DNA of 64,000 nt from an uncultured Candidatus Saccharibacteria bacterium (lineage in GTDB: Bacteria > Patescibacteriota > UBA1384 > XYA2-FULL-43-10 > CAINNR01), in contig CAYRLY010000001.1 in assembly GCA_964425445.1 (NCBI GenBank), positions 5,537 to 69,536 of the forward strand. The letters are read 5' to 3'. The notes under the pieces are model-generated. The model saw only the letters and a list, made by a program, of their open reading frames with translations, was not told where the DNA came from and searched no databases. Within the stretch, counting starts at the first letter, position 1; each line of letters opens with the position of its first letter. Position numbers and translations under genes: made by a program. Positions 12,122-36,308 of this stretch are shown piece by piece.

Positions 12122-12230
12122 CACATTATCAAGAGAGACGTTAGGGAATTGGCCCATTGAGCGTCCAGCAACCATCATTCACATAAGAGTGAACGGTGCT
12201 AAGTCCAAGCCGGATGGCAAGATAATTATT
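12122..12230 (+). promoter_or_regulatory. SAM-I (S-box) riboswitch in the metK leader
   Basis: Match to the SAM-I core: UAUCAAGAGAGACGUUAGGGAAUUGGCCCAUUGAGCGUCCAGCAACC ... GGUGCUAAGUCCAAGCC. The P1 3' strand GAUAAUUAUU pairs with the 5' AUUAUC. Confidence 0.8.
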
Positions 12231-30448: not shown

Positions 30449-31237
30449 ATGTTTATTGATACTCATGCACACTTAGACTTTCCAGAGTTTAAAAATGAAG
30501 TTCACCAGGTCTTGGGCCGGGCGAACTCTGCTGAAGTCAAAAGAATTATAAATGTCGGCGTTGATGTCGATTCCTCGAAGAGATCCGTTGATTTAGCTCG
30601 CAAATATCCTGAAGTTTATGCCGCGTGTGGAGTACATCCTCATTCTGCTAATGATCTCGATATCGAAGCCAATCAGAAACTGCTCTCAATTACTAATCAT
30701 CCGAAGGTGGTGGCGATCGGTGAGATCGGTCTGGACTATTACTATCTCAAGCGTTCGTCACAATTTTCCAAATACCCTTCGCGCGAAAAACAAATTTTAT
30801 GTTTTGAACAAATGCTTGATCTCTCGGTTGAATTACGACTGCCGGTTATTATTCATTCACGTGAGGCTGATTCCGATGTTTATGCAATTTTAAAAAGCTA
30901 TCAAAAAGATATTCGGGGCGTGGTTCATTGCTTTTCCTCCGATTGGGATTTTGCAAAAAAAATCCTCGATTTAAATATGGCAATATCATTCACCGGTAAC
31001 ATCACTTATAAGCAGGGCACAGAGGTCGAGCGAATTATTAAAGAGCTTCCACTTGGATCGATGATGATCGAGACTGATTGTCCGTATCTTGCGCCGGAAC
31101 CGTTTCGAGGCAAGCGTAATGAGCCGGCTTACGTTGTCAAAGTTGCAGAGGAGATTGCTAGAATTAAAGATCTGCCTTTGTCTGAAGTCGAGCGCCAAAC
31201 GACTAAAAAAGCGATGACACTTTTTGGAATAAAATAA
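30449..31237 (+). CDS. tatD: TatD-family metal-dependent hydrolase/DNase
   Basis: MFIDTHAHLDF start plus conserved HxH and GEIGLD motifs. Confidence 0.85.
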   Translation: MFIDTHAHLDFPEFKNEVHQVLGRANSAEVKRIINVGVDVDSSKRSVDLARKYPEVYAACGVHPHSANDLDIEANQKLLSITNHPKVVAIGEIGLDYYYLKRSSQFSKYPSREKQILCFEQMLDLSVELRLPVIIHSREADSDVYAILKSYQKDIRGVVHCFSSDWDFAKKILDLNMAISFTGNITYKQGTEVERIIKELPLGSMMIETDCPYLAPEPFRGKRNEPAYVVKVAEEIARIKDLPLSEVERQTTKKAMTLFGIK

Positions 31238-31242
31238 TTTTG

Positions 31243-31298
31243 TTGACTCATTCGACCATGACCAGAGTCAACTCTGAATGGCCAACAACAGAGTTGAC
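31243..31298 (+). promoter_or_regulatory. operator-like array of three GTTGAC-containing motifs, including a self-palindrome AGAGTCAACTCT
   Basis: gttgactc (31243), gagtcaac within agagtcaactct (31264-31275), cagagttgaca (31288-31298); followed by TTTACA, 17 nt, TATATC and the ATG. Confidence 0.45.
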
Positions 31299-31355
31299 AA
31301 AAAGTTACCTAAAATGTTACCTTATTTACAGGTAATTCTTTAAATTTATATCATA

Positions 31356-31565
31356 ATGAAAAACATTAACGTAAATGAACTACAAAACACAATTTCACAG
31401 GTAATGCGCGAAGTTGAATCGGGTGAGGTTTTTGAAGTAAGTCGTTATTCCAAGCCGGTGGCTTATTTAGTGCCACAACGTGAGTATGAAGCAGCTGTTT
31501 CCGGCAGTGGCTGCAAGGCTTGTATGGCAGATTTACGAAAAATCGCAAAAGAAATTAAAAAATGA
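31356..31565 (+). CDS. Phd/YefM-fold antitoxin-like small protein (69 aa), translationally coupled (ATGA) to iscS
   Basis: INVNELQNTISQVMREVESGEVFEVSRYSKPVAYLVPQREYE matches the Phd/YefM N-terminal domain pattern; no cognate toxin gene adjacent. Confidence 0.6.
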   Translation: MKNINVNELQNTISQVMREVESGEVFEVSRYSKPVAYLVPQREYEAAVSGSGCKACMADLRKIAKEIKK

Positions 31566-32827
31566 AAAGAATATACTTAGATAATTCAGCTACTACTCCG
31601 ACCGATCCGGAGGTTTTAAAGGTAATGTTACCGTGTTTTTCTGATGATTTTGGTAATCCTTCGTCGATTCACAATTTTGGTCAAAGTGCTAGATCAGCAA
31701 TCGATGAGTCAAGGGTAACAATTGCCAAGTTTCTAAATTGCAAATCAACGGAAATAATTTTTACTTCCGGCGGTAGTGAATCGGATAATCTCGCCCTAAA
31801 GGGCGTAGTTGAAAGTCTAAAGCCTCAAGTTAAAAACCGAAAGCCTCATGTGATTACTAGTGCTTTTGAACATCATGCAGTTTTGGATACCATTAAAGAG
31901 TTGGAAAATGACGGAGTGGTTGAAGCCACATACATTAAGCCCAATTCTGACGGGATAATTAAAACTGGAAGTGTTGAAAAAGCGATCAAAAATAATACCG
32001 TTCTAATTTCAATTATGTATGTCAATAATGAAATCGGTACGCTCCAGCCGATTAGAGAGATCGGACAGATGATTGAAAGAATCAATGAAGCAAGGAGTAA
32101 GAAGCAAGGAGTAAAAAGTGGAAACAAAATCCTTACTTCTAACCCCATACTTCATACTTCTGAAAATTCGTCGCGGATTTTTTTTCATTCAGACGCGGTT
32201 CAGGCGGCAGAATATTTTGAGATGAATGTTGATTATTTACATGTTGATCTACTTTCGATGTCAGCACACAAAATTTATGGACCAAAAGGTATCGGCTTGC
32301 TTTATATTCGTTCTGGAACGCCGATAAAACATCAGATTGTCGGAGGCGGTCAAGAATACAAAAAAAGGGCGGGAACGGAAAATGTGCCGGGAATTGTTGG
32401 CTTTGCGAAAGCAGTAGAATTAATAAATTCTAAATCCGAATATCGAAATTCAAAATTCAATATTCAAGAACTTTGTGATAGATTAATTGATGGTTTGTTA
32501 GAAATTCCAAAATCAAGGTTAAATGGTAGTCGGGAGCAAAGAAGTCCGGCGAATGTAAATATCTCGTTTTTAAATGCCGAAGGAGAGTCGATTTTGCTGA
32601 ATCTGGATATGGAGGGCATTGCTGCTTCAACCGGCTCTGCCTGTACTTCCGGATCGCTCGAGCCGTCGCATGTGCTTTCCTCATTGGCTTTGCCGCCAGA
32701 GGAATGCCATGGTTCGGTTCGTTTCACACTTGGAAGACAAACTAGCGCTGAAGAAATTGATAAAGTTATTTTGGCAATGAAAAATATTGTTGAGAAATTA
32801 CGCAAAATGAGTCCATTAAAAATTTAA
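31562..32827 (+). CDS. iscS: cysteine desulfurase (IscS/NifS class)
   Basis: IYLDNSATTPTDPEVL start; PLP-lysine SAHKIYGPKG; C-terminal GSACTSGSLEPSHVL active-site Cys loop. Confidence 0.9.
   Translation: MKRIYLDNSATTPTDPEVLKVMLPCFSDDFGNPSSIHNFGQSARSAIDESRVTIAKFLNCKSTEIIFTSGGSESDNLALKGVVESLKPQVKNRKPHVITSAFEHHAVLDTIKELENDGVVEATYIKPNSDGIIKTGSVEKAIKNNTVLISIMYVNNEIGTLQPIREIGQMIERINEARSKKQGVKSGNKILTSNPILHTSENSSRIFFHSDAVQAAEYFEMNVDYLHVDLLSMSAHKIYGPKGIGLLYIRSGTPIKHQIVGGGQEYKKRAGTENVPGIVGFAKAVELINSKSEYRNSKFNIQELCDRLIDGLLEIPKSRLNGSREQRSPANVNISFLNAEGESILLNLDMEGIAASTGSACTSGSLEPSHVLSSLALPPEECHGSVRFTLGRQTSAEEIDKVILAMKNIVEKLRKMSPLKI
32088..32119 (+). repeat. GGAGTAA-containing 11-mer direct repeat, in frame in iscS
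   Basis: gcaaggagtaa-gaa-gcaaggagtaa-aaagtgg, translated EARSKKQGVKSGN, in a low-complexity insertion. Confidence 0.5.
32428..32468 (+). repeat. CGAATAT / CGAAATT / CAAAATT heptamer tandem repeat, in frame in iscS
   Basis: ttctaaatccgaatatcgaaattcaaaattcaatattcaag, translated NSKSEYRNSKFNIQE. Confidence 0.55.
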
Positions 32828-32865
32828 AATCCCGCCATGGGCGGGAGTCGGTCTTGCGGCATGAG

Positions 32866-33129
32866 TTACGCCGCAGGGAAGATAGTGCGGAAGCGCTCGA
32901 TGACCCGCTCGGTCATCTCAGTACCGTAGGTCTCGCGGTCGGTAGCGTCTCTGACCCCGTCAGTCTCGTGGTCCCAGCACTGGTCGAGGTATGAGGAACC
33001 GCAGGGGTTGGTCTCGCCGATATTCGAGCGAATATGCTCTTCGGTGAGCTCCCCCCCATCCTCTTCGGTGATCCTCTTCGCGCGTACGAGCATGCCGTCA
33101 ATCTGTTCGTCAGAAATACTGCTTCTCAT
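32866..33129 (-). CDS. GC-rich small acidic hypothetical protein (87 aa)
   Basis: ORF track; GC-rich; flanked by the cccgccatgggcggg and tgcggc-atgagttac-gccgca hairpins on the iscS side. Confidence 0.35.
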   Translation of the reverse strand: MRSSISDEQIDGMLVRAKRITEEDGGELTEEHIRSNIGETNPCGSSYLDQCWDHETDGVRDATDRETYGTEMTERVIERFRTIFPAA

Positions 33130-33207: not shown

Positions 33208-33624
33208 ATGGAAAATATATATAGCGAAAAAATTATGGATCACTTTCGCAACCCGAGAAATCTTGGGGAAATTGCTGACGCCGATGGTGTTGGTGTTGTT
33301 GGCAACCCAAGGTGCGGTGATGTGATGAAAATGTATATTAAAGTCGAAAGTCGAAAGTCGCAAGTCGGAAAGACCGAGGAATTTATCAGAGATATTAGAT
33401 TCCAAACTTTGGGCTGCGGAGCGGCGATCGCTTCCTCGTCAATAGCGACCGAGATGGCAAAAGATAAAACTCTTGATGAAGCGCTAAAAATCTCCGGTAA
33501 GGACATTTCACGTGAAATGGGCAAATTCCCCCCGGCAAAATTTCATTGTTCGATCTTAGCTGAAGAAGGAATAAAAAAAGCCATCGCTGATTATAGAAAA
33601 AACGAAGTAAGGAGAAAAAAGTAG
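33208..33624 (+). CDS. iscU: Fe-S cluster assembly scaffold protein (IscU/NifU N-terminal domain type)
   Basis: MDHFRNPRNLGEI...GNPRCGDVMKMYIKV...FQTLGCGAAIASSS; all three conserved Cys present. Confidence 0.85.
   Translation: MENIYSEKIMDHFRNPRNLGEIADADGVGVVGNPRCGDVMKMYIKVESRKSQVGKTEEFIRDIRFQTLGCGAAIASSSIATEMAKDKTLDEALKISGKDISREMGKFPPAKFHCSILAEEGIKKAIADYRKNEVRRKK
33340..33372 (+). repeat. GTCGAAA/GTCGCAA heptamer tandem repeat, in frame in iscU
   Basis: aaagtcgaaagtcgaaagtcgcaagtcggaaag, translated KVESRKSQVGK. Confidence 0.6.
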
Positions 33625-33626
33625 GA

Positions 33627-34430
33627 ATGAAAGTTTTTGATGGCCGAAAAATTCAAAAAGAAATCCTGGCTAAGATTAAGAAACGGCTAGAAAAAATTGA
33701 TTACCAGCCAACACTAGCGGTGATTTGGGTTGGCAATGATCCGATCTCTGCTCGGTATGTGGCAATAAAACAACGAATTGCTGAAGATTTGGGGATACAT
33801 TTTGATATTTATAAATATTCGACCGATGTCGAAATCGAAGAGTTAATTTCAAAGATTAAGGAGTTAAATCTGGAGAAAAAAGTCGATGGGATAATGATCC
33901 AGATGCCACTTCCGAGTCGAGTTGATTCAATAAAAATAATTTCAGAAATTGACCCCAAAAAGGATGTTGACGGGCTTAGAATGTGTGCTGATCTTGTATG
34001 CGAGATAAGACCGCCGGTAATAAAATCGGTGCTTATGGCAATAAAATCATCCGGTGTGGATATCAGGAAAAGCAAGGTAGCAATTGTTGGTAAGGGTTTC
34101 TTGGTTGGTGCACCACTTATTAAAATCCTGCAACAATTGGCTCTCGAGCTTAATGTTGCCGATATAGAAACCCCATACATTGGCACTATGACTGCCGATG
34201 CTGATATTGTGATCTCAGCGACGGGCAAAGCCGGTCTCATCACTTCGGATATTGTCAAGGATGGAGTCGTGATAGTCGACGCTGGTACCTCGGAAGTTGG
34301 CGGAGAACTTAGGGGGGATGTCGATCCTGAAGTTTACAAAAAGGCCTCGCACTATACTCCAGTCCCCGGTGGAATTGGTCCGGTAACCGTGGCAATGTTA
34401 TTTAAGAATTTAATTGAAAAATTGAAGTAA
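33627..34430 (+). CDS. folD: bifunctional methylenetetrahydrofolate dehydrogenase/cyclohydrolase
   Basis: KIDYQPTLAVIWVGNDPISARYVAIKQR and the FolD-typical C-terminal TPVPGGIGPVTVAML. Confidence 0.9.
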   Translation: MKVFDGRKIQKEILAKIKKRLEKIDYQPTLAVIWVGNDPISARYVAIKQRIAEDLGIHFDIYKYSTDVEIEELISKIKELNLEKKVDGIMIQMPLPSRVDSIKIISEIDPKKDVDGLRMCADLVCEIRPPVIKSVLMAIKSSGVDIRKSKVAIVGKGFLVGAPLIKILQQLALELNVADIETPYIGTMTADADIVISATGKAGLITSDIVKDGVVIVDAGTSEVGGELRGDVDPEVYKKASHYTPVPGGIGPVTVAMLFKNLIEKLK

Positions 34431-35566
34431 TGAAGCTAGCTGTTGCGATGTCCGGAGGCGTTGATTCTTCGGTAGTAGCTAAAATTTTAAAAGATCAGGG
34501 CCACGATCTAGTCGGTTTATTTTTAAAGATGTGGTCTGACCCGACCTGCTCAGCTAAAAAGGAGAATCGTTGTTGTGACTACGAAGCGCTTGAGGATGCA
34601 AGAGTAGTAGCAAAAAGTCTTAATATTCCTTTTTATGTTATTAATGCTGAAAAAGAATTTAAGAAAATGGTTGTCGATTATTTCCTTGATGAATATAAGA
34701 ATTTACGGACTCCAAACCCCTGCGTTGTTTGTAATAAAAAAATCAAATTTGATCTTCTTTTGCGCAAAGCGCTAGGGATTGATTGTGACAAGTTGGCAAC
34801 CGGACACTACGCCAGAATTGTCGAGGACAATTCTGGAATTTCTAAATTCGAAATCCGAAGCACGAAACAAAAAAAATCAAATTTCAAACTATTAAAAGGA
34901 ATTGACGAAACAAAGGACCAATCCTATATGCTTTATTCTTTAAATCAGGATCAACTTGGGAAAATTATCTTCCCTATTGGAGGAATGAGGAAAAAAAATG
35001 TTCGGGATTTAGCGATTAAATGGAATCTCCCAGTTAAGGAAAAGCCGGAGAGCCAGGAGATCTGTTTTTTCGCTGATAGAGATTATCGCTTATTTTTAAA
35101 AAGATATTTGCCGAAGAAATATTTTCGATCAGGTGACATTGTTGATACTAATGGTAAAAAAATTGGAAAACATGAAGGCTTGATAAATTACACAATTGGA
35201 CAGCGGAAAAGGTTGGAGCAAGAAGTATGGAGCAAGAAGTATGGAGATAAAAAACCATTATATGTTATCGGATTTGATATCAGGAATAATCAGTTAATCG
35301 TTGGCGAGGACAAAGATGTTTATTCGGATAAAATGGTGGTGACAGATTTAAATTTTATCCATGATTCACAATTCATAATTCATTATTCTAATCTTACAGT
35401 GAAGATTCGCTATCAACATCCGGCTGTGGAGTGCCAGATTGAAAATATTTCTAACAAAGAACTAAAAGTAAAATTCAAAAAATCCCAGAGAGCAATAACC
35501 CCGGGTCAATCAGCAGTGTTTTATCTAGAGGACGAGGTCATTAGTGGCGGAGTAATTGAATCTTAG
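34430..35566 (+). CDS. mnmA: tRNA-specific 2-thiouridylase
   Basis: KLAVAMSGGVDSSVVA PP-loop; catalytic Cys residues; C-terminal beta-barrel. Confidence 0.9.
   Translation: MKLAVAMSGGVDSSVVAKILKDQGHDLVGLFLKMWSDPTCSAKKENRCCDYEALEDARVVAKSLNIPFYVINAEKEFKKMVVDYFLDEYKNLRTPNPCVVCNKKIKFDLLLRKALGIDCDKLATGHYARIVEDNSGISKFEIRSTKQKKSNFKLLKGIDETKDQSYMLYSLNQDQLGKIIFPIGGMRKKNVRDLAIKWNLPVKEKPESQEICFFADRDYRLFLKRYLPKKYFRSGDIVDTNGKKIGKHEGLINYTIGQRKRLEQEVWSKKYGDKKPLYVIGFDIRNNQLIVGEDKDVYSDKMVVTDLNFIHDSQFIIHYSNLTVKIRYQHPAVECQIENISNKELKVKFKKSQRAITPGQSAVFYLEDEVISGGVIES
34835..34868 (+). repeat. TTCTAAA/TTCGAAA/TCCGAAG heptamer-like repeat, in frame in mnmA
   Basis: ggaatttctaaattcgaaatccgaagcacgaaac, translated SGISKFEIRSTKQ. 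Confidence 0.5.
35214..35243 (+). repeat. tandem duplication of the 15-mer GGAGCAAGAAGTATG, in frame in mnmA
   Basis: ggagcaagaagtatg occurs twice, translated LEQEVWSKKYGD. Confidence 0.6.
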
Positions 35567-35639: not shown

Positions 35640-36206
35640 TCATCCGCTAGTGACCTTCTGGGCCAGGCGGATGATCTCTGATAGAGGGTGGTGCCGACGC
35701 ATCCTCAGCACCGACCATGGGAGACGTATGTCTCTGGGTTCAGGATTCGAGGAGGTGCTGACCACCGGTGTTCCATCATTGGTCTCTTCAGACTCAGGGC
35801 CAGGCTCTAGATATGGGAGGTCGATTACCGGCATGCCATCCTCGGCCTCCTCGGGCGTGGTAGCGAAGACGATCAGACGTTTCTTGATCTCCTCGATCGT
35901 CTCGCCGGTGATCTTGGCGATCTTATCAAAAGGAATCAGATCGGTGACGACACCCGCCGGTACCGGTCCGCCGGAGGCAATATCCCCGGCATTGTGTTGG
36001 AGAAATACAACATCGCCAACACCGAGCCGGAAGGTGATCCGACTGGCGGCTCGAATCGCCACGATCTCCTGTTCTTTGCCACTTATATCGGGGAATGGTA
36101 TGAACTCTACTCCACAGTCGGCGGTTCCGATTATGGGGCTATCCGACACAACGACGATTCTACCTTTGCCCATTCCAAAGACTCCCTTCGGGGGATTCAT
36201 GCTCAA
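35640..36206 (-). CDS. GC-rich hypothetical protein (188 aa)
   Basis: Protein-like minus-strand ORF (GVFGMGKGRIVVVSDSPIIGTADCGVEF...). The overlapping plus-strand ORF is Ser/Arg/Pro-rich, as expected for a wrong frame in GC-rich DNA. Confidence 0.4.
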   Translation of the reverse strand: MSMNPPKGVFGMGKGRIVVVSDSPIIGTADCGVEFIPFPDISGKEQEIVAIRAASRITFRLGVGDVVFLQHNAGDIASGGPVPAGVVTDLIPFDKIAKITGETIEEIKKRLIVFATTPEEAEDGMPVIDLPYLEPGPESEETNDGTPVVSTSSNPEPRDIRLPWSVLRMRRHHPLSEIIRLAQKVTSG

Positions 36207-36308
36207 GATTTTTATAACATAATACTAAAAAATAGTCAATGGTTTTTTCGGTAACTGCCCCCATTACTATCATTATTTAGAGGATCTCTCGACAAAGCTC
36301 GAAATGTA

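Follow-up and report, generated by a model that had tools for sequence, protein, structure and literature searches.

In a 64,000-nt stretch of contig CAYRLY010000001.1 (assembly GCA_964425445.1; hereafter the window, 64 kb in all), a short gene on the forward strand (31356–31565) stands at the head of an operon that serves the assembly of iron-sulfur (Fe-S) clusters, directly in front of the genes for a cysteine desulfurase and an IscU-type scaffold. Its 69-amino acid product, the sequence of which is that quoted in the original prediction and in the list of open reading frames (ORFs) of the window, has the fold of the Phd/YefM antitoxins and no toxin partner. We propose that this protein is a domesticated, dimeric autorepressor of the Fe-S operon that replaces IscR, a reading built from sequence comparison to which we assign a probability of about 60%. 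With it, Berkelbacteria probably possess a new type of regulator for their Fe-S assembly genes. The proposal draws on features computed in silico, namely the fold, the absence of a toxin, the linkage to the desulfurase gene, an invariant CxxC motif, a locus-specific pair of boxes in the promoter, the covariation of protein and boxes, and the mutual exclusion with Rrf2 regulators; from these, we infer DNA binding, repression, dimerization, and the chemistry of the cysteines.

The assignment to the Phd/YefM fold, first made from an N-terminal sequence pattern, is borne out by profile and structure comparisons. The protein matches PF02604 (PhdYeFM_antitox) over residues 1–47 with 35.5 bits (cut-off 29.8) and the NCBIfam model TIGR01552 with 34.8 bits (cut-off 20.8), and neither profile rejects the fold; a PHROG match to "Phd-like antitoxin" is weak. 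An AF2 model built on 43 homologs (mean pLDDT 92) displays the topology β1 (residues 2–5), α1 (6–11), α2 (13–21), β2 (26–30), β3 (33–38), α3 (41–49), and α4 (51–68), which contains the β-α-α-β-β-α N-terminal fold of antitoxins. The best Foldseek matches of this model in the PDB are exclusively antitoxins (VapB46, Phd, YefM, and RelB-type proteins), and the Phd-operator DNA complexes 4zm0 and 4zm2 are among the matches, with 29–31% identity and a root-mean-square deviation of 1.8 Å over 51 columns. The family profile aligns one to one with residues 1–47 of Phd. Judging from the model, residues 1–49 would constitute a DNA-binding and dimerization domain.

Beyond residue 47, where the profile match stops, the protein continues into helix α4, which carries a CxxC motif at its start, in the position occupied by the toxin-binding segment of Phd and YefM; a toxin-binding tail of the kind that binds Doc or YoeB was not found. 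The motif, Cys53-Lys-Ala-Cys56 (codons at 31512–31523, forward strand), holds the sole cysteines of the protein. Both are invariant in all 43 aligned homologs, as are N7, L9, Q10, S14, G23, R30, Y31, S32, P34, and A36. The motif is kept in 30/30 genome loci (distinct loci from 28 GTDB species genomes and two metagenome contigs) and in 25/25 metagenome loci retrieved through their desulfurase genes, and it is retained, together with the "RYS.P" loop, in distant members at 24–38% identity. A few variants, such as P0059 and P0149, have a second CxxC or additional cysteines in the tail.

The family defined by this combination is compact. Sequence search yielded 63 clusters at 90% identity and profile search 396. 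When 1.84 billion 50%-identity representatives were searched with a profile, 15 scored at E ≤ 1e-10, with generic antitoxins beyond. Its named entries belong to Candidatus Berkelbacteria or Patescibacteria, and public records label them [quoted passage not shown] or hypothetical. We found no published description of a Phd-CxxC family in the literature on antitoxin families or on Patescibacteria with Fe-S, IscS, or IscR. The "type II toxin-antitoxin system antitoxin" label on hundreds of family entries is probably wrong and inflates the toxin-antitoxin counts of these genomes. One member, P0139 (locus L038, 4001–4657; 218 amino acids), has the Phd-CxxC module fused to a C-terminal NUDIX hydrolase domain, with desulfurase and then IscU directly downstream.

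The genomic setting of the small gene is that of a short Fe-S operon. In the window, it is followed on the forward strand by the gene for a class V cysteine desulfurase of the IscS/NifS/MisS type (31562–32827, 421 amino acids; PF00266, 255.6 bits), by that for an IscU/NifU-N type Fe-S scaffold (33208–33624; PF01592, 150.4 bits), which confirms the iscS–iscU succession originally called, and by two further genes identified from Pfam, folD (33627–34430) and that for the tRNA 2-thiouridylase MnmA (TrmU; 34430–35566), an enzyme that uses sulfur from the desulfurase. The best NCBIfam models are NifS TIGR03402 for the desulfurase (481.6 bits, under the cut-off of 530.75) and clostridial NifU TIGR03419 for the scaffold (168 bits, under the equivalog cut-off of 187.9). 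The genes hscBA, fdx, and iscA are absent from the gene string around iscS and iscU in the window. With its adjacent class V desulfurase and U-type scaffold genes, the operon classifies by sequence as a minimal IscS/IscU (MIS, NIF-like) system.

This arrangement is strictly conserved at its core. The desulfurase gene lies immediately 3′ of the small gene in 30/30 genome loci, with identity down to 39%, and an IscU match follows in 28 of them (the contig of L025 ends first, and L028 has no IscU match). FolD and/or MnmA usually come next, folD lying 3′ of iscU in most loci and mnmA being kept in most. Even six distant CxxC members (24–38% identity) have the desulfurase downstream in 8/8 loci, in one case with a 23S_rRNA_IVP gene in between. 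The upstream neighbor, a TatD gene in the window, differs among loci and may be TatD, a giant fn3 protein, or an HTH_17 protein. As for translational coupling to iscS, the overlap on which that idea was based is present in the window, where the TGA of the small gene (31563–31565) and the ATG of the desulfurase gene (31562–31564) share an ATGA. Such a stop/start overlap is found in about half of the related loci and the others have a gap of 30–126 nt, so that coupling does not extend to the family as a general feature. No recognizable Shine-Dalgarno sequence is seen ahead of the small gene in the window.

No toxin gene adjoins the small gene in the window, in 38 loci fetched through the protein, or in 25 fetched through the desulfurase; the gap before iscS, at most 126 nt, is too short to hold one. 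The original prediction had remarked on the missing toxin in this one locus and had left open either an orphan antitoxin turned regulator or a degenerate toxin-antitoxin locus. Across all relatives examined, the desulfurase follows and a toxin is nowhere adjacent. The second of these options does not survive: more than 60 species-level loci keep the Phd-CxxC gene, conserved and under selection, with a desulfurase in every case and a toxin in none.

Comparison of the window with its close relative L008 reveals a mosaic in this region. Nucleotide identity is 85–97% up to 31448, mostly 61–86% between 31449 (near residue 32 of the small protein) and the point where iscS ends, and back to 95–100% in iscU and folD; within 31449–32848, it is still lower in three 100-nt windows interrupted by gaps in the alignment. 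On this sequence comparison, the CxxC tail and the desulfurase were exchanged as one block relative to L008, which may reflect co-adaptation or mere adjacency.

Other genes can occupy the position in front of the desulfurase gene. We fetched 80 metagenome loci through their desulfurase (45–76% identity) and scored the same-strand occupant of the upstream slot in the 69 with enough upstream DNA, 11 having too little. The slot holds a Phd-CxxC gene in 25 loci, an Rrf2 gene (PF02082, 101–131 bits, with IscR-like cysteines) in 23, an Nfu-type gene (PF01106) in 8, and another gene in 13. No locus has two of the three types directly upstream of one desulfurase gene, and no Rrf2 or Nfu gene occurs within the fetched range of the Phd-CxxC loci; two Nfu loci (L083 and L095) carry an Rrf2 gene farther upstream. 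Within the 64-kb window, there is no Rrf2-like and no second Phd-like ORF, and the 69-amino acid protein itself matches neither PF02082 nor PF01106. Like IscR, the protein is encoded by the first gene of an iscS–iscU operon, an equivalence of position only. The order regulator–iscS–iscU–(folD)–mnmA is the same as that of Rrf2 (cpe1786)–iscS–iscU–trmU in Clostridium perfringens (PMC2940859). The idea that a domesticated antitoxin-fold regulator here stands in place of IscR is thus strengthened by the Rrf2 genes found in the same slot of sister lineages, mutually exclusive with the Phd-CxxC gene. At a further locus, L115, a 127-amino acid HTH_3 protein (1895–2278) with a cysteine-rich C terminus (CEVCKKYNKGVLAYC) ends about 220 nt before the desulfurase gene, with a 91-amino acid ORF nearer to the latter; by its sequence, the HTH_3 protein could be a further cysteine-bearing regulator type at this slot.

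The DNA in front of the small gene carries a conserved promoter with operator-like boxes built into it. An alignment of upstream regions displays the order of a TTGACA −35 box, 2–4 nt, and two 12-bp units, ATGTTAYMTANN and ATGTTAYMTTAN. In the window, the −35 box lies at 31294–31299 on the forward strand and aligns with TTGACA, TTGACT, or TTTACA in nearly all related loci, 2–4 nt before the first box. Predicted operator box 1, AGTTACCT (31303–31310, with GTTACCT at 31304–31310), lies in the promoter spacer, and predicted box 2, TGTTACCT (31315–31323, with GTTACCT at 31316–31322), overlaps an extended −10 element, both on the forward strand. This −10 element comprises TG at 31315–31316 and TACCTT at 31318–31323, 18 nt past the −35 box; elsewhere, box 2 has the form TGTTATATT, in which TATATT comes after TGn. 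In general terms, the extended −10 (TG, a single base, TAYMTT) is part of the second unit and follows the −35 box at a distance of 18 nt, and the first unit occupies the spacer, where promoters require no particular sequence.

To locate the pair elsewhere, we scanned for two copies of TGTTAYMT 12 bp apart, each with at least 7/8 and together with at least 15/16 matches. Within the window, counting both strands, the one such pair is that at 31303. The 220 kb of related loci yield 21, of which 20 lie immediately upstream of the small gene. Of the spacings between 8 and 24 bp, that of 12 bp alone is enriched, with 19/31 loci as against 0–1 for each of the rest. A third predicted box, AGGTAAT (31330–31336, forward strand; ATTACCT when inverted), forms with box 2 the palindrome GTTACCT-N7-AGGTAAT (31316–31336), which lies approximately at the inferred transcription start and is the sole one of its kind in the window; neither a further box pair nor a further palindrome was found there. 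The same palindrome with an 8-nt spacer is seen in L006, L009, L013, L035, L037, and L038, and box 2 and its inverted copy form the palindrome GTTAYMNTA-N4-TANKRTAAC in the clade of the window and in distant members. The conserved cis-element, as far as the aligned sequences tell, is therefore the (T)GTTAYMT pair between −35 and −10, rather than the GTTGAC triplet, treated below, that had been put forward as the operator.

Several other interpretations of this region were considered. The only consensus promoter reported by a promoter scanner, TTTACA-18-TATCAT at 31325–31354, was kept as a possible second promoter and not preferred, TTGACA-N18-TGnTAYMTT being the arrangement conserved across loci. 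Boxes 2 and 3 could also be read as an RNA hairpin or attenuator, with a T-run after the palindrome in several loci; this was rejected because the −10 element lies inside the 5′ arm, so that transcription would begin inside the palindrome. No Rfam match falls within 31200–31360, and a known RNA element does not account for the upstream repeats; the only Rfam matches of the window are a SAM riboswitch (RF00162, 52.2 bits; 12123–12228) and the tRNA gene cluster at 39–50 kb.

Individual loci vary on this theme. In L005 (3800–4003) and at the same position in L009, the operator and the real start are separated by inserted REP-like hairpin repeats, along with a 27-nt duplicate of the first codons of the gene (MKQINVNEL...); a 27-codon upstream ORF results, and its TGA shares bases with the GTG/ATG start of the gene. 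In L010 and L011, the −10-like box ends just 6–7 nt before the ATG, a layout implying that the mRNA is leaderless in these two loci.

The geometry of the boxes and the identity of the conserved residues both point to YefM. In Escherichia coli, YefM represses its own promoter by binding two palindromes whose TGTACA cores lie 12 bp apart (centre to centre), with a footprint over the −10 element (PMC1802561). The structure of the Staphylococcus aureus YefM–YoeB–DNA complex places two YefM dimers in adjacent major grooves, with DNA contacts from N5, Y6, S7, R10, Q11, K14, and T32, and with the α3 helices (41–57) of both subunits crossing at the dimer interface (PMC7544224). The family invariants N7, Q10, S14, and R30-Y31-S32 lie at or beside these contact positions, in the same two segments, and R30 aligns with R31 of YefM and R30 of Phd.

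Residue 11 of the family, which aligns with the base-contacting Q11 of YefM, varies in step with the boxes. Proteins with Asn11 are preceded by GTTACC boxes in 15/18 loci; those with Ala or Ser at this position have GTTACC in 0/31, with GTTATA or GTTACA instead. The distant member at L038 (32% identity), which has Asn11, likewise has GTTACC. We consider this covariation the best in silico indication that the protein itself reads the boxes. Autorepression through the box pair remains a prediction, with strong sequence evidence behind it.

These observations would fit a simple regulatory scheme. An antitoxin-fold protein that lost its toxin partner would have been recruited as a repressor of its own operon, consisting of the small gene, the desulfurase gene, and those for IscU, (FolD), and MnmA. 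Its N-terminal domain would bind two or three GTTAYMT boxes, two of them direct repeats 12 bp apart and the third inverted. Because these boxes occupy the spacer, the −10 element, and the start of a TTGACA-N18-(TG)n-TAYMTT promoter, protein sitting there would block the access of RNA polymerase, as YefM does on its own promoter.

Several findings weigh against this autorepressor reading. Arg10, the chief base-reading residue of both YefM and Phd, is an invariant Gln in the family. The covariation at residue 11 rests on few clades and hence on few independent events. Box 2 coincides in part with what an extended −10 element needs, which leaves only box 1 and the inverted box free of that requirement. 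The proposed −10 element, TACCTT, is weak, and the sole scanner consensus promoter is the alternative at 31325–31354, although the boxes would still overlap its −35 region. Finally, the slot is filled in 8 related loci by an Nfu-type CxxC cluster carrier of 74–85 amino acids, so that the small CxxC protein could be a carrier instead of, or besides, a regulator.

If the protein is a repressor, the CxxC helix would be its signal input. By analogy with YefM, the motif would sit where the α3 helices of the two subunits cross (YefM residues 41–57), which would bring both CxxC motifs of a dimer close together. In the scheme that we favor, the CxxC helix would replace the toxin-binding tail, and the four cysteines of the dimer would ligate an Fe-S cluster made by the IscS and IscU encoded downstream, with cluster occupancy setting the affinity for DNA and giving an IscR-like negative feedback. 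A bridged cluster seems the most likely input because the CxxC lies at this crossing point and because IscR senses a cluster. Of the known regulators, IscR and SufR respond to Fe-S cluster status, and MIS has been studied least among the assembly systems (2026 review, PMC13066941). In its full form, the proposal is that a hitherto undescribed class of transcription factor, a sensor of Fe-S status (or persulfide), arose on the Phd/YefM fold, with the toxin as co-repressor giving way to a CxxC-bridged cluster; that it displaced IscR in Berkelbacteria and other Patescibacteria; and that it may double as a carrier for the MIS system. We advance this full version tentatively, as a possibility that falls somewhat short of even odds.

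The cysteines may instead serve an autorepressor that carries no Fe-S cluster, as a thiol-disulfide or persulfide switch responding to redox state or sulfane sulfur, or as ligands of a structural zinc. The CxxC is predicted to stand where a helix begins, a placement typical of redox-active motifs; a persulfide is made by the first enzyme of the operon; in the antitoxin MqsA, structural zinc is bound by two CxxC pairs; and each chain has just two conserved cysteines. The strict linkage to Fe-S scaffold genes and the replacement of IscR, itself a cluster sensor (PMC13066941), speak for a cluster. Tails with four cysteines, seen in some variants, fit a four-ligand site, which agrees with zinc as much as with a cluster. 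We regard persulfide or thiol redox sensing, or zinc binding, as the less likely role of the motif, and a cluster-free autorepressor overall as unlikely.

A different possibility is that the protein acts not as a regulator but as an accessory of Fe-S assembly, either an Nfu-like carrier or a partner of IscS/IscU, in which the Phd fold would serve as a dimerization module and the boxes would belong to another factor or to a plain promoter. The Nfu genes directly upstream of the desulfurase gene in 8 loci, and their absence from the fetched range of the Phd-like loci, speak for such a function. So does the stop/start overlap in about half of the loci, an arrangement common for proteins made in fixed ratio, and so does the exchange of the CxxC tail and iscS as one block relative to L008 between flanks of 88–100% identity. 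A two-gene MIS-type system is, moreover, without a known carrier (PMC13066941). What makes this explanation quite improbable is that conservation is strongest at the positions by which YefM contacts DNA and not on a protein-partner surface, that the box pair is found specifically at this promoter, covaries with residue 11, and has the geometry of the YefM operator, and that an Rrf2 regulator fills the slot about as often as the 69-amino acid protein does. The roles of carrier and regulator are not mutually exclusive and could coexist in one protein.

The three GTTGAC motifs upstream of the promoter had originally been proposed as the autoregulatory operator. Three copies are indeed present, at 31242 (+), 31267 (−), and 31293 (+), the first starting at 31242 rather than 31243 and the set spanning 57 rather than 56 bp; with only 27 copies in the whole window on both strands, the cluster is not due to chance. 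The sequence AGAGTCAACTCT, described as self-complementary, is so at 10 of 12 positions, the exception being the central CA. The arms of the array (31242–31249, 31264–31276, and 31289–31298) are mutually complementary and allow alternative pairings of 1 with 2, 2 with 3, and 1 with 3; as RNA, the region 31242–31298 folds at −19.3 kcal/mol (z = −2.7), and the 5 substitutions that distinguish the window from L008 all lie outside the arms. The array is kept, however, only in L008, whose neighboring proteins are 98% identical, and partly in L007, and the other ~28 genome loci lack it even though the DNA-contact residues are invariant. Its third copy is accounted for by the −35 box, which takes up the 3′ part of that motif, and its location upstream of the promoter is a poor one for a repressor. 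An operator function of the array for the 69-amino acid protein is therefore very improbable. The region could instead form a structure at the 3′ end of the tatD transcript or be the site of another factor. A promoter and terminator scan found no terminator after tatD.

That the protein is simply an ordinary or decaying type II antitoxin, orphaned or with its toxin encoded elsewhere and next to iscS by accident, is hardly credible: the Pfam and NCBIfam antitoxin models, the weak PHROG match, and the prevent-host-death name in public records speak for it, and against it stand the missing toxin (0/38 protein-fetched and 0/25 desulfurase-fetched loci), a gap before iscS too short for a toxin gene, the 18-residue CxxC helix in place of a toxin-binding tail, and a desulfurase linkage that holds down to 24% identity despite a changing upstream neighbor, unlike an incidental position.

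The region also contains two compositionally unusual segments. An 87-amino acid ORF (32866–33129, reverse strand) lies antisense between iscS and iscU, with about 60% GC in a genome of 40% GC, its own GGAGG ribosome-binding site, and an intrinsic terminator on the minus strand (hairpin 32829–32848). It has no Pfam or PHROG match and, among 5.8 billion proteins, matches itself alone; it is present on 13 contigs, lies between desulfurase and IscU in all six places listed, and is absent from L008. Its product is 100% identical even where IscS (396 vs. 421 amino acids) and IscU (143 vs. 138 amino acids) differ. A second GC-rich island (35640–36250; 0.53–0.58 GC) lies just 3′ of mnmA and has long ORFs on both strands, of 188 (−) and 190 (+) amino acids, with no Pfam, PHROG, or Rfam match. 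Comparable genes of 186–192 amino acids adjoin mnmA in L122 and L123.

Dedicated sensors of Fe-S cluster status are few, and Patescibacteria are mostly uncultivated, with regulation that is essentially unknown. The 69-amino acid protein is an easily expressed candidate regulator for the MIS system in this group, the Candidate Phyla Radiation, and its predicted operator boxes and two cysteines are simple mutational targets. If our proposal is correct, the DNA-binding module of an antitoxin has been re-used for a housekeeping operon, its toxin-binding tail swapped for a cysteine motif, and the replacement of IscR would be a clean example of non-orthologous displacement.

The nearest relatives of the protein are Phd of phage P1 and YefM, with which it shares the N-terminal fold and the arginine of the β2–β3 loop, and its predicted operator resembles that of YefM in consisting of two short boxes 12 bp apart (centre to centre) over the −10 element of its own promoter. 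It differs from both in being encoded without a toxin, in having a short helix with a CxxC where they have a disordered toxin-binding tail, and in the replacement of Arg10 by Gln. Its predicted targets are housekeeping genes for Fe-S assembly and tRNA thiolation, and any co-repressor would be a cofactor instead of a toxin.

In position, the protein resembles the IscR/CymR-like Rrf2 regulators (PF02082), which occupy the same slot with the same operon order in 23 loci of sister Patescibacteria and in C. perfringens. Both are small, cysteine-bearing proteins for which feedback on Fe-S or sulfur status would be expected. Rrf2 proteins, however, are winged-helix proteins of about 130–150 residues, compared with 69 residues and a Phd/YefM fold here. 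IscR ligates its cluster through three cysteines and one histidine of a single chain, whereas the 69-amino acid protein offers only two cysteines per chain. Nfu-type carriers are also small, and a cluster is bridged between the two subunits of their dimer by one CxxC from each; the likeness to Nfu (PF01106) is confined to the CxxC and to the slot upstream of the desulfurase gene in 8 related loci, but the fold is another, and Nfu has no DNA-binding features.

Two further regulators offer looser parallels. NikR joins a ribbon-helix-helix fold, shared with antitoxins, to a metal-sensing C-terminal domain and represses a metabolic operon. The likeness lies in the concept alone, a DNA-binding fold shared with antitoxins and a sensing C-terminal part; the two are not homologous, NikR having a ribbon-helix-helix and a whole sensor domain in contrast to a single CxxC helix. 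MqsA, at once an antitoxin and a transcription factor whose CxxC pairs bind structural zinc, is likewise a CxxC-bearing regulator of antitoxin type. It differs in its HTH-Xre DNA-binding domain, its four cysteines per chain, its cognate toxin MqsR, and its lack of any link to Fe-S genes.

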